Shown here: piece after piece, positions 14,481 to 17,435 of the stretch
Numbering within the stretch: the stretch's first letter is position 1
Layout of the letters: each line of letters starts with the position of its first letter
From: Octopus vulgaris
Lineage: Eukaryota
DNA length: 64,000 nt
Assembly: GCA_951406725.2 (NCBI GenBank)
Contig: CATOCA020000001.1
Location: 10,788,001-10,852,000, forward strand
Direction: 5' to 3'
Made by a program: the position numbers and the translations under genes
The notes under the pieces: model-generated
Database searches by the model: none
The model's input: only the letters and a program-made list of their open reading frames with translations
What the model was told of the DNA's origin: nothing

Positions 14481-14552
14481 AATCCCTTTAAATTTGAAAG
14501 CCCCGTGAATGCTCCTTCTTTGATGGTTGCTATGTTGTTCTCGTTCAGAGAT
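14481..14552 (-). CDS. LRR protein, 72-bp LRR exon (SLNENNIATIKEGAFTGLSNLKG[L]); duplicate of 17364-17435
   Basis: Exactly 72 bp, CTGCTATAG acceptor and GTAAGT donor, phase 2-2, LRR consensus, open reading frame. Confidence 0.92.
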
Positions 14553-17363
14553 CTATAGCAGTAAAGAAAGAGTAAAATAGATTATATGGAAAATATTTGT
14601 GATACAACATCAAACACTGTGACTTGAGAATGAAAGGAAGAAAACGAAGAAAGATAACGAAGAAGAAAAGGAAGAAGAAGAAGGAAGAGGAGGAGGCGAA
14701 GAAGAATTAGAAGAAAGGAGAAGAGGTTGAAGAAAAAGAAGAGCAAGAAGGAATAGGAGGAAAAAGGAGGAGGAGGCTAAAAAAACGGAAGAAGATGTAG
14801 GAGAAATAGTAAAAGAAGAAGAAGGAGGGGAGGAGGAGGAGGAAGAGAATAACAAGAAGAAGAGGATAAGAATAAGAAAGACGAGGAAGAGGAGGAGGAG
14901 AAGTAGAAAGAAGAAAGGAGAAGAAGAAGAAGGAGAAGAAGAAGGAGAAGAAGAAGAAGAAAATGAAGGAGGATAGGGAGGGGGAGGGGAAGAAGAAGAA
15001 TTGCTAGAAGAAGGAAGGGAAGAACAAGAAGAAGAAGACGTAGAAGAAATTGAAGCAGGAAAAAGAAGAAGATGAAGAAGAAGAAGGAGGAGGAGGAGCA
15101 GGAGGAGAAGGAGAAAGAGAATAACAAAAACAGAAGTTAAGAAGGAGAAGGAGGAGGAGGCGGAGATGTAGAAGAAGAAGAAGAAGAAGAAGAAGGAAGA
15201 GGAGGAAAAAGGAGGAGGAGTAGGAGTATGAAGGGGGAGAATAAGTAGGAGAAGATGAAAAAGAAGAAGATGAAGGAGGAGGAGGAGGATGAGAATAACA
15301 GAAAGAAGAATATAAGAAGAAGAAAGAGGGGTAGGAGGAGAAGTAGATAAAGAAGTAGAAAGAAGAAGAAGAATATAAGAAGAAAAAAAAGAAATAGAAG
15401 AATGAGAAGAAGAAAAGAAAAAGGAGGAGGAGGAAAAGAAGAAGAAGAATTAGAAGAAGAAGCAGAAGAAGAAGAAAAGGAGCAGGAGTGGAAGGGAGGA
15501 GGAGAATTACAAGAAGAAAAATGAGGAGGAGGGGCGGAGAGGATTGGGTAGAAAAAAAGAAGATGAAAAAAAGAAGTAGAAGAAGGAAGAGGAAAAAGGA
15601 GGAGGAAGATGATGATAGGGAAAAAGTAGGTGAAGAAGAAAAAGAATAAGAATAAGAATAAGAAGAAGGAGGAGGAGGAAGGGTTGATGAAGAAGTTGAA
15701 AGTAGAAGAAGAAGAAGAAGGAGAAGAGGAAGTAGAAGAATAAGAAGAAGAAGAAGACGAAGAAGAAGAATAAGAAGAAGAAGACGGAGAAGAAAAAGAA
15801 GAAAAAAGAAAAAGGAGCAGGAGAGGAGGGGGAGGAAGAGAATTACAAGAAGAAATAGGAGGAGGAGGGGCGGAGTGGAGGGGAAGAGAATTTAAAAAAG
15901 AAAATGAAGAATAATAATAAGAAAAAATTAGAAGAGGAAGGAGGAGGACCAGGAGGAGGAGGAGGACCAGGAGGAGAGGAGGACCAGGAGGAGGAGGAGG
16001 ACCAGGAGGAGGAGGAGGACCAGGAGGAGGAGGACCAGGAGGAGGAGGACCAGGAGGAGGAGGAGGAGGAGGAGGAGGAGGAGGTGAAATAGAAGAAAAA
16101 GAAAAGAAGAGAAGAAGAAGAAGAAGAAGAAGTAGATGAAGTAGAAGTGGAAGAAAGAAAAGAAGAAGAAGAAGAAGAAGAAGAAGAAGAAGAAGAAGAA
16201 GAAGGAGGAGGAGGCAGAAGACGAAATGACAAAAAGATGATGAAAAAGGCAGAGAAGGAGAAGTAGAATAAGAAAAAGAACAAAAAGAAGAAGGAGAAGA
16301 AGAAGAAGAAGAAGAAGAAGAAGAAGAAGAAGAAGAAGAAGAAGAAGAAGAAGAAGAAGACGAAGAAGAAGACACATTGAAAATCATGGTGTTTAAGATG
16401 AAACTGAAAATATTTTCGAAATATCAGGAAATAATTCAAGGATAGAATGAAAAATTTTGGGCGAGAAGACATGGCTGAAAAATCAGGGAATATACGGAAT
16501 CAGAAATCAACATATTCAAATGCACTCATACGCATTCTTATATTCATAGTATCAACGACGGAATGCGGTATGCACACTCACATCACACATATTCCCACTC
16601 ACCCTTGTGGAAATATGGTGAGAGAGATTATTTATTTCATATCGCTTCATTGTCACAAGAATATTAGAAAACACACGCTTACAAGAAATATATCAGCAGT
16701 TTAATTGTATCAGGCCAAATATTCCAGCTTACAAGTACAGTAAGTATTTCAGGTTTACAGATAGAATGTATGTGACTATATTATTCGAATATATATTTTC
16801 CGCTTCCACTTCAGTTGCTCTATTACAAAATAACGTGAAGTGAATGACAAAATTCGAAGTTGAATGATAATATCGAAACACGAAGGAGAATATTGAAATA
16901 AGAAATGGAGGAGGATGTAAAATATAAAATAAAAGAATAATATAGTCACATTTCACACAGAACTACACTTATATATGAACATACACATATACTTCAGCTA
17001 AAAATATTTGATGCAAACATGTAAACTCACAAACGTTACCATTTCTAATACAAATTCATATCAAAATCATTGAAATTTGGGGAACAAAAATGAGTTATTG
17101 AGATGCGAATTGAAACAAAGCAACTACAATAAAGGAACATTATATTTTTCCCATTATTTCACTTTCTCTCTCAAATTCTCTCTCTTTCTTTCACATTGTC
17201 TCGCTCTCTCATATTCTCTTTGTATATTCCTAAATCGTGTTCATTCTACAAATTTGAATTAATTTTGTTTAGTTCAGTCTGAAATATTATACATTTGTGA
17301 GCTTATATATCAGCATCAATTATTACTTTCGGAAAATAGTATCAAGAAACTGAACGAACTTAC

Positions 17364-17435
17364 AATACGTTTAAATTTGAAAGCCCCGTAAATGCTCCTT
17401 CTTTGATGGTTGAAATGTTGTTCTTCCAAAGATTT
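17364..17435 (-). CDS. LRR protein, 72-bp LRR exon (NLWKNNISTIKEGAFTGLSNLNV[L])
   Basis: Exactly 72 bp, TTTTTACTGCTATAG acceptor and GTAAGT donor, phase 2-2. Fits the 24-aa LRR consensus LxLxxNxIxxIxxxAFxxLxxLxxL. Confidence 0.92.

Follow-up and report, generated by a model that had tools for sequence, protein, structure and literature searches.

A candidate conversion-shuffled pool of variable LRR exons in an octopus adhesion-GPCR family

We know of no diversified immune receptor in cephalopods. The accessible part of a 2026 review names none either (PMC13428168). The described system most similar to the genes analyzed here is exon shuffling in brown-algal ROCO genes. In the available portions of two ROCO reports (PMC3341825, PMC11378527), as in octopus, each 72-nt phase-2 exon encodes one 24-aa LRR, the number of repeats varies, some exons are inactivated, the concave face is diversified, splice variants occur (in octopus suggested by annotation models) and an immune role is proposed. 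However, ROCOs are intracellular ROC-COR GTPases, whereas in octopus the LRRs sit outside the cell on an adhesion-GPCR ectodomain that exists in membrane and secreted-type versions; Pfam scans of five proteins returned no match for a ROC-COR GTPase domain. In the octopus genes the intron also cuts through the variable strand, and inverted exons were seen at one locus only, beside an assembly gap. The two cases are independent in origin.

Lamprey and hagfish VLRs, as far as the sources at hand describe them (PMC3900441, PMC13428168), share the series LRRNT, n x 24-aa LRRV, LRRVe, short last LRR and LRRCT, the variability of the concave sheet, the fold and the coexistence of membrane and secreted forms, the latter being predicted in octopus. 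Yet a VLR starts as an incomplete germline gene and is assembled somatically, with donor cassettes, by cytidine deaminases, while the octopus genes are complete, intron-containing germline genes with repeats that are ordinary spliced exons. The gene described here is not a VLR.

At primate red/green opsin exon 5, in the MHC and in plant R genes, introns are homogenized, exon divergence is kept around selected sites and new haplotypes are created by conversion, according to the portion of PMC3924837 available; the octopus unit differs in being a repeat exon with >100 copies within and between genes rather than a gene pair. The sea-urchin SpTransformer genes, in the accessible text of PMC8634487, are likewise a young invertebrate multigene family of mosaic coding blocks with long GA-rich simple repeats, which are proposed to promote duplication and conversion, but the proteins are unrelated and the mosaic elements lie within one exon. 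Finally, the group-3 adhesion GPCRs of Ritschard et al. 2019 (PMC6408891) combine LRR, GPS and 7TM domains, form tandem clusters and show branch-level positive selection. The part of that report available to us gives no positively selected sites, exon-level repertoire, intron homogenization or 7TM-less members. In our literature search, mostly outside subscription papers, octopus LRR-adhesion GPCRs were nowhere described as hypervariable at the exon level.

Layout and affiliation of the window gene

The window, a stretch of 64,000 nucleotides from Octopus vulgaris, includes the first coding exons of a gene that is complete and in frame and encodes a predicted signal peptide, an LRRNT cap, two variable LRRs, LRRVe, LRRCT, a Cys-rich domain, a SEA-like part, HRM and again a SEA-like part (Table 1). 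The gene extends past the window start with 11 further coding exons (G000:C31:10787146 to 10766072): two for the Cys-rich domain, three SEA-like, two HRM, three SEA-like and, directly after this second SEA-like block, a short terminal exon that looks like the tail found in relatives with a 7TM. Its start-codon exon matches the N-terminus of the protein model P0024 and has 31 related copies in the genome.

Table 1 Features of the window gene and its repeat units (positions within the window)
Feature	Position	Strand	Remarks	Basis
Start-codon exon with predicted signal peptide and LRRNT cap	23482..23692	-	start codon 23672; ends phase 2	sequence
GAA/GGA purine-rich tract, upstream of exon B	17496..19245	.	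pyrimidine-rich on sense strand; part of ~2.9-kb repeat unit	
Variable LRR exon B	17364..17435	-	72 nt, phase 2-2, AG/GT borders, NLWKNN...LNV	
Unique ~900-bp intron segment, downstream of exon B	16453..17363	-	common to the family's type-1 units	
Purine-rich tract, upstream of exon A	14612..16375	.	91% A+G on +; best matches mostly paralogue g03	
Variable LRR exon A	14481..14552	-	72 nt, phase 2-2, AG/GT borders, SLNENN...LKG	
Unique ~900-bp intron segment, downstream of exon A	13568..14480	-	13 substitutions vs B copy in 910 aligned bases	
Last LRR exon, LRRVe-like	8397..8468	-	72 nt; among paralogues varies at x7, x8 and last codons	
Short last LRR and LRRCT cap exon	3981..4138	-	158 nt	

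A tblastn search with P0056 revealed no GAIN/GPS exon in the 54 kb downstream of the LRRCT of the window gene, and none of 72 genome-wide GPS matches lies on C31 beyond 9.48 Mb. A secretin-type 7TM of this gene was not found either, Pfam returning only LRR and a weak HRM match on P0001. As GAIN, GPS and 7TM are lacking, the product is predicted to be secreted; close paralogues retain the 7TM. One of them, g04 (P0014), to which the window gene is 73-74% identical over the aligned part, has Pfam matches to 7tm_2 (E=6.6e-34), GPS (E=1.1e-10) and LRR_8 (E=2e-25), and GAIN and GPS exons follow in genomic order downstream of g04. In a GPS-7TM tree of 21 rows (of 27 intended, 6 in which the GPS motif was not located were dropped), 17 octopus rows group together with 100/100 support. 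This clade includes A0A0L8FLR8, A0A0L8GYR2 and A0A0L8GB41, all listed as group 3, with which P0014 nests at 100/100. The tree covers the paralogue and the window gene joins by sequence identity; on this footing it belongs to the octopus-expanded group-3 adhesion-GPCR family, as a 7TM-less member, a point absent from the initial annotation of this DNA.

In the AlphaFold model the pattern x3-L-x5 forms the strands (residues 81-83, 105-107, 129-131 and 153-155), which together with established LRR structure predicts that the variable x positions lie on the concave, ligand-facing side. Against lamprey VLR structures the modeled LRR part reaches a TM(target) of 0.74-0.79, but netrin-G ligands, LGI1 and Slit match it equally well. 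A solenoid of LRRNT, 24-aa LRRVs, LRRVe and LRRCT with a variable concave face is present; on the model, VLRs and other LRRs with caps are not told apart. The Cys-rich domain has 12 Cys and a CCxxxxCN end like the CC-x4-CN motif of Ly6/uPAR three-finger (LU) domains; the model has pLDDT <50 there, Pfam gave no match and an Atlas lead to a TGF-beta receptor ectodomain reached 0.76 only. The SEA-like part (residues 302-394, pLDDT 60-85) has no Pfam or Atlas match, and its modeled secondary-structure order fits the β-α-β-β-α-β of SEA domains, ferredoxin-like modules that lie ahead of HRM/GAIN.

Annotation model P0024 includes exon A and model P0001 skips it. These models differ by multiples of 24 aa, as do 13 isoforms of one O. 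sinensis gene, and LRR exon skipping is suggested by such annotation models, although several isoform units look like mid-exon chimeras of the kind that read mis-mapping would give. Head-to-tail LRR exon junctions of family members occur in the RNA-like runs X1, X4 and X6 (three studies) and not in X15; these runs are contigs of presumed RNA nature, and their depth did not enter the evidence. No junction of exon A itself is among those listed from these runs.

Divergence of the exon pair and of the family

Exact alignment of exons A and B, which are spaced 2883 bp apart, gives 12 differences in 72 nt, 3 synonymous and 9 non-synonymous, the same counts as in the initial annotation. The clustering at x positions reported there is also seen: 8 of the 9 replacements fall inside five codons (x5, x7 and x8 at the 5' end, x2 and x3 at the 3' end) and the ninth, A/S, is in the framework. 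These hypervariable codons of exon B are located at 17432-17434, 17423-17428 and 17366-17371; the exon matches Pfam LRR_8 with E=1.1e-4, as a single repeat below the curated cut-off. Intron divergence, previously judged by eye to be ~2%, amounts to 14 substitutions in 987 aligned bases (1.4%) and 5 indel events for the unique flanking intron, making the exons ~12x more diverged (Fisher P=1.8e-8, odds ratio 13.9). In the purine-rich tracts (~1.75 kb), which the initial annotation had left aside, 40 of 1669 aligned bases are substituted (2.4%) and 24 indels occur. As the tract is also only 2.4% diverged, the contrast is valid for the whole unit, and intron divergence does not approach that of the exons on the full alignment. 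A false duplication or assembly artefact was ruled out by the 17% exon difference and is further countered by a B-like-then-A order in g03, with 2889-bp spacing, and by up to 21 units at other loci.

Both exons belong to a set of >100 repeat exons that are nearly interchangeable and are spread over at least 17 genes of one family. At 17 loci we collected 126 internal LRR exons that are in frame, with 2-21 at each locus, in line with the modular 72-bp exons proposed earlier, while 7 of 133 are frame-broken, for which assembly errors are possible. The 102 type-1 exons encode 97 distinct peptides and join 65 5' motifs to 23 3' motifs in 89 combinations, that is, in near-free combination. LRRVe, LRRNT, LRRCT and type-2 exons vary at the same x positions. 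In models from O. sinensis, 8 of 18 5' motifs are common to this genome and 10 are absent from its set. No orphan VLR-type cassette arrays were seen among 79 genome-wide pattern matches, of which 73 fall within the 17 loci, 3 at the gapped 5' end of g16 and 3 upstream of more distant LRRCT exons, outside the examined stretches. All counts refer to one haploid assembly with gaps at g06, g12 and g16. The ending of g06 after the second SEA exon and the lack of an LRRCT in g12 are apparent only, as assembly gaps cut both loci.

Among 72 units (2556 pairs), mean differences rise from 3.8% in introns to 7.8% in the framework and 46% in the five concave-face codons. Together with the blocks common to distant genes described below, this agrees with the earlier suggestion of conversion with intron homogenization. 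Framework pS is 0.164 (16%) and five-codon pN 0.48; the ratio of five-codon pN to framework pS was estimated at 3.2 (gene-bootstrap 3.0-3.6), and framework pS itself exceeds intron divergence (gene-bootstrap ratio 3.0-6.1), so silent exon sites are older than introns. Within the five codons dN/dS>1 was not obtained: pN/pS is 1.26, and in a minimal-change test 45 of 57 changes were non-synonymous against 81% expected (P=0.71). The position-specific excess leads us to infer selection on these codons. The initial annotation had called for diversifying selection to be examined by genome-wide exon collection with dN/dS and conversion tests; its proposal holds in the excess over framework pS and in the signs of recombination, but not as an overall dN/dS>1 within codons, where the value is ~1. 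Whole-gene selection tests overlook such sites because the repeats are not alignable by position.

Proposed origin and function of the repertoire

In our reading, exons A and B are modules drawn from a pool of 72-bp LRR exons that extends over the whole family, is likely shuffled by conversion and kept diverse by selection, and would act as a variable recognition repertoire. The ~2.9-kb units, each consisting of an exon, ~1 kb of unique intron and ~1.75 kb of purine tract, would mispair; crossing-over between mispaired units would alter repeat number and conversion would homogenize the introns. Conversion that erases a binding-face motif would be selected against, so that old motifs persist with their linked silent variants, and short conversion tracts would recombine these persisting motifs. 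The shuffling would thereby combine germline gene conversion and unequal crossing-over, homogenizing the framework as well as the introns. Each intron appears to split the variable β-strand, with x2-x3-L in one exon and x5-L-x7-x8 in the next, and any intron crossover or exon skip would for this reason make a new in-frame strand. We hold the conversion-plus-selection step with good confidence. Selection and conversion had been offered as alternatives; both find support, acting together rather than either/or.

Several observations point to such exchange. Within the 72 bp exon the Hudson-Kaplan Rm is 10, and one tree is therefore invalid for tree-based site models; mean r2 between exon sites is 0.04-0.05 at 11-72 bp. 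Upstream and downstream introns are more strongly correlated with each other (Mantel r=0.42) than with the exon blocks between them (0.04-0.18). Exon A, together with the 110 bases preceding it and the greater part of the tract further upstream, matches paralogue g03, 5.5 Mb away, and other segments of the A/B region match g05, g06, g08, g10 and g11. High-frequency intron variants lie near the exon (8 of 10 within 160 bp, P=4e-5), some of them in a short run rich in CT, where the mutation rate may be higher. Gene-level structure (Fst-like) is 0.28 for introns and 0.08-0.09 for exons in all 72 units, a contrast that depends on outlying genes since it is weak for both in the 62 core units (intron 0.084, exon 0.043-0.083).

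The 7TM (membrane) and secreted forms would then bind foreign ligands that change rapidly and most likely come from microbes or parasites, a functional step to which we give about even chances. We infer an immune or self/non-self recognition role. With its VLR-like geometry, membrane/secreted-type pairing and measurable diversification mechanism, the family is a concrete immune-receptor candidate; if true, octopus would have an antibody-like receptor repertoire and a GPCR with an ectodomain evolving like an immune receptor. Only tentatively do we suggest an independent VLR-like recognition system on an adhesion-GPCR scaffold, in which >100 LRR exons would be recombined in the germline, with exon skipping and possibly somatic conversion in haemocytes, 7TM members would signal and 7TM-less members would be secreted antibody-like binders.

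Through the same evolutionary mechanism the repertoire could instead serve the wiring of neurons, with a code like that of Dscam or the protocadherins, or self-recognition of tissues such as skin and sucker, and not defence, which strikes us as rather unlikely; the family would then form a combinatorial code of a new kind in the octopus arm. Octopus arms show self-recognition by skin cues, an LRR-bearing group-3 member is skin/sucker-biased and the fold matches NGL, LGI1 and Slit, all of which speak for this role. Among related group-3 genes, expression is in skin/sucker for some, broad for others and in axial nerve cord for yet others, and the available text of PMC6408891 reports enrichment of O. 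bimaculoides group-3 adhesion GPCRs in axial nerve cord, suckers and skin, its authors proposing a role in wiring. However, the quick turnover of repeat number and motifs (10 of 18 O. sinensis 5' motifs absent here), the 7 frame-broken exons and the many secreted-type copies would fit an arms race more readily than a wiring code under conservation, and expression in C. minor is in gill and skin, which are barrier tissues.

The preferred conversion-plus-selection reading was also weighed against other sources of exon divergence. Targeted local hypermutation of exon ends (germline or templated), with little positive selection and with purifying selection guarding the L/N scaffold, is improbable. 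The five codons do have more synonymous minimal changes per site (4.55) than framework (1.14) and intron (0.62), which could come from a mutation-biased process, and many of their codon differences are multi-nucleotide. Hypermutation is nevertheless difficult to reconcile with the third position of x5, which is T in 71 of 72 units beside first and second positions carrying all four bases, or with that of x3, A in 62 of 72 and likewise adjoining four-base positions. The L6 silent site inside the variable patch has two states only (CTT 36, CTG 36), and intron bases flanking the splice sites are not raised in divergence.

Exon-restricted conversion templated by spliced mRNA (cDNA), shuffling exons and leaving introns untouched, is quite improbable. 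Exon blocks are indeed decoupled from both flanking introns, as the Mantel values above show, and D' is lower in exons (0.27) than in introns (0.51; MAF>=0.12). On the other hand, intron variants recombine freely too (r2 0.05-0.07), blocks common to different genes contain intron and tract DNA, and no fused or intron-less LRR exon pair is present among the 147 exons listed, the shortest spacing being 573 bp.

The least probable course, to which we give hardly any credence, is a single tandem duplication of recent date with rapid change of amino acids thereafter, through selection alone and without conversion, that the initial annotation had also considered: it would fit the 8 of 9 replacements in five codons and the family-wide x5 values (pN 0.50, pS 0.05), but is contradicted by Rm=10 within the exon, by a silent A/B divergence of 19% against 1.4% in the intron and by identical copies in distant genes. 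As pS (3/15.7=0.19) and pN (9/53.3=0.17) of the pair are roughly equal, rapid amino-acid change after duplication is insufficient alone. Exons A and B are not each other's nearest relatives in the comparison with family units; for the 5' block the sister unit ranks only 44th-56th of 71. Every block of both exons has an identical match in other genes, and exon A is 100% identical to the exon of g03 at G000:C31:5336352-5336423.

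Divergence of paired LRR exons and their family

The window (G000:C31:10788001-10852000), part of a 2.8-Gb genome, carries a gene whose exons are identical to stored proteins labeled Octopus vulgaris. Its two variable LRR exons, A and B, differ at 12 of 72 nucleotides, whereas the unique flanking intron has 14 substitutions (1.4%) and 5 indels over 987 aligned bases; this contrast is real and well beyond chance (Fisher P=1.8e-8). The purine-rich tracts of the two units differ by 40 substitutions in 1669 bases (2.4%) and 24 indels. The initial annotation had described exons far more diverged than their introns, with amino-acid changes clustered at variable LRR positions, and both observations hold: eight of nine replacement differences fall in the five codons for positions x2, x3, x5, x7 and x8 (x codons). 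Its interpretation, diversifying selection or conversion acting on duplicated exons, stands only in part, as A and B are not sister copies and their silent and replacement divergences are nearly the same (pS 0.19, pN 0.17), both more than 10 times the intron value.

LRR-region exons of the gene within the window
Feature	Position	Strand	Length
Signal-peptide/LRRNT exon	23482-23692		
Exon B	17364-17435	minus	72 nt
Exon A	14481-14552	minus	72 nt
Last LRR exon	8397-8468		
LRRCT exon	3981-4138		

Genome searches returned 31 LRRNT-exon and 37 LRRCT-exon matches, from which 17 close loci on contigs C31, C30, C2, C5 and C14 were taken (g12, g16 and g17 are partial). These contain 126 in-frame and 7 frame-broken internal LRR exons, 2-21 per locus and of two types, as well as 14 in-frame last exons; a few more damaged exons lie outside this count. 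Type-1 exons are highly diverse, with 97 distinct peptides among 102. The statistics cover 72 of the 102 units, those in which 700 or more of the 880 downstream intron bases could be aligned; among them the mean pairwise difference is 3.8% in intron, 7.8% in framework and 46% in the five x codons. Even the 77 unit pairs with introns less than 1% apart still differ by 42% at x-codon positions. Type-2, last, LRRNT and LRRCT exons vary at the same positions. Other family modules also vary in number, since the Cys-rich domain is tandemly present in two and three copies in the O. sinensis models P0007 and P0020. At g16 (G000:C5:141880930-141891849; stretches L092, L093, L086), where no LRRNT exon was found, four LRR exons are mirrored as an inverted copy beside an assembly gap, either a true inverted duplication or an assembly artefact.

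Probable conversion and selection among units

Because silent-site divergence exceeds intron divergence between A and B and in the framework family-wide (16% different, 3.0-6.1 times intron), the exon variation is older than the introns. We consider the following mechanism probable: gene conversion would homogenize the introns and selection would hold conversion back in the exons. The available text of PMC3924837 describes this same signature for opsins and MHC. Block comparison across the family rules out A and B as sister duplicates. An exon of g03, 5.5 Mb away, has the same sequence as exon A, and g03 also matches the 110 bases before exon A and most of the upstream tract. For B, the 5' block recurs in g03 and g09, and the 3' block in six units of g03, g05, g06 and g09. 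Within-exon linkage is near nil (r2 0.04-0.05 at 11-72 bp; Rm=10), and flanking introns correlate with each other more than with the exon between them, short blocks being noisy measures. By analogy with SpTransformer genes, as presented in the accessible part of PMC8634487, the purine tracts may promote mispairing of units.

Variation is position-specific: the five codons have a pN 3.0-3.6 times as high as framework pS; x5 is variable at codon positions 1-2, yet its third position is T in 71 of 72; and of the 10 common intron variants, 8 are no more than 160 bp from the exon. We therefore infer that selection acts on the x codons. Pooled over the five codons, dN/dS is about 1 (1.26 pairwise; minimal-change test P=0.71), and the 62 core units show weak gene-level structure in introns and exons alike. 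All values derive from one haploid assembly, gaps included. In the AlphaFold model (pLDDT ~70-95 in the LRR part, 57 overall) the strands consist of x3-L-x5 and span each exon junction.

Gene layout and relation to adhesion GPCRs

Past the window edge, eleven further in-frame exons encode a 12-Cys domain (putatively LU-like), a SEA-like block, an HRM (weak Pfam match, E=0.018), a second SEA-like block and a short terminal exon similar to the tail of 7TM relatives. The product is predicted to be secreted, because GAIN, GPS and 7TM exons were not found across 54 kb downstream, nor GPS matches on C31 past 9.48 Mb. This 7TM-less layout recurs in g03 and in models P0007 and P0023 (O. sinensis) and P0057 (O. 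bimaculoides).

Six close GPS copies occur in the genome. Locus g04 (model P0014) combines LRR, Cys-rich, SEA-like, GAIN, GPS and 7TM domains, and the full layout including HRM is found in the more distant relatives P0056, P0058 and P0061. A GPS-7TM tree was built from 21 of 27 intended rows, the other 6 being left out because the GPS motif was not located in them; in it P0014 groups at 100/100 with three group-3 proteins of Ritschard et al. (PMC6408891). The window gene does not itself classify as an adhesion GPCR; it derives from that family. The octopus expansion of group 3 is already published there, and the available text reports neither selected sites nor the exon repertoire; that of PMC13719153 mentions LU-bearing molluscan GPCRs, octopus not being named.

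The 7TM-less paralogues carry the HRM between two SEA-like blocks, unlike the close 7TM-bearing g04 (C31:2.90-2.95 Mb), g05 (C30:15.46-15.53 Mb) and g15 (C30:19.56-19.62 Mb), which gave no HRM exon match. Both forms could descend from a SEA-HRM-SEA-GAIN ancestor via different deletions. At G000:C31:2553586-2564774, a GPS exon 100% identical to that of g04 at protein level lies downstream of a more distant-type HRM exon (88%), a pairing that suggests exchange between subfamilies. In the 7TM-less P0057 the SEA-like block is duplicated, and by eye the second copy is closer to the first copy in the same model than to those of O. vulgaris; either the secreted layout arose independently or the copies have evolved in concert. 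The second HRM exon (G000:C31:10777360-10777500) is 100% identical in 6 C31 places and 99% in 5 more, C1, C2 and C7 among them; such constant exons are either homogenized or very young. HRM copies at C31:10008669, C31:4854626, C7:619238 and C1:216652768 have no nearby close LRRNT/LRRCT match.

A LINE-type element (minus strand, positions 1118-4342 of stretch L069) inside an intron of the second SEA-like block contains broken frames that, by their motifs, are putatively endonuclease and reverse transcriptase. The intron ahead of the LRRCT exon holds an ATG/CAT trinucleotide array of ~860 bp (window 5100-5960), nearly identically present in g06. Upstream of the gene, window 28600-64000 has no convincing ORF of at least 110 aa and consists of nested segmental repeats (1-2.4 kb blocks, 86-99% identity, period ~8-10 kb), with a 353-bp tandem array at 43004-44367.

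Possible function, known systems and splicing

Recognition of changing foreign ligands, an immune role to which we give roughly even chances, is favored by the rapid turnover, the diversity of the concave face, the broken exons and the secreted-type copies. A neural or self-recognition code is the main rival, to which we give a lower probability; it draws on the tissues of group-3 gene expression, namely axial nerve cord, sucker and skin for O. bimaculoides, gill and skin for C. minor (available text of PMC6408891). The whole explanation, conversion under selection plus foreign-ligand recognition, we regard as fairly likely.

Exon shuffling works alike in brown-algal ROCO genes, as far as the accessible parts of PMC3341825 and PMC11378527 describe it; identity with ROCO was rejected. 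The LRR part resembles lamprey VLRs in shape (PMC3900441, in part), with equal likeness to NGLs, LGI1 and Slit, and the octopus genes are not VLRs since the germline genes are complete. The available text of PMC13428168 names no diversified cephalopod receptor. We found no account of an octopus LRR exon repertoire in the literature, where subscription papers and unseen supplements may bear on novelty.

Three RNA-like contig sets (three studies, none recorded as RNA) contain junctions that join LRR exons head to tail, in frame on the minus strand as read by eye; the large run X15 lacks them. Thus family members are spliced, a statement covering members and not exon A itself. Exon A is included in model P0024 but not in P0001. 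For one O. sinensis gene there are 13 models, whose lengths differ by multiples of 24 aa; exon skipping may explain this, but several of the models contain mid-exon chimeras typical of mis-mapped reads. Among O. sinensis repeats, 8 of 18 motifs at the 5' end also occur in the present genome, as do 3 of 21 repeats taken whole.
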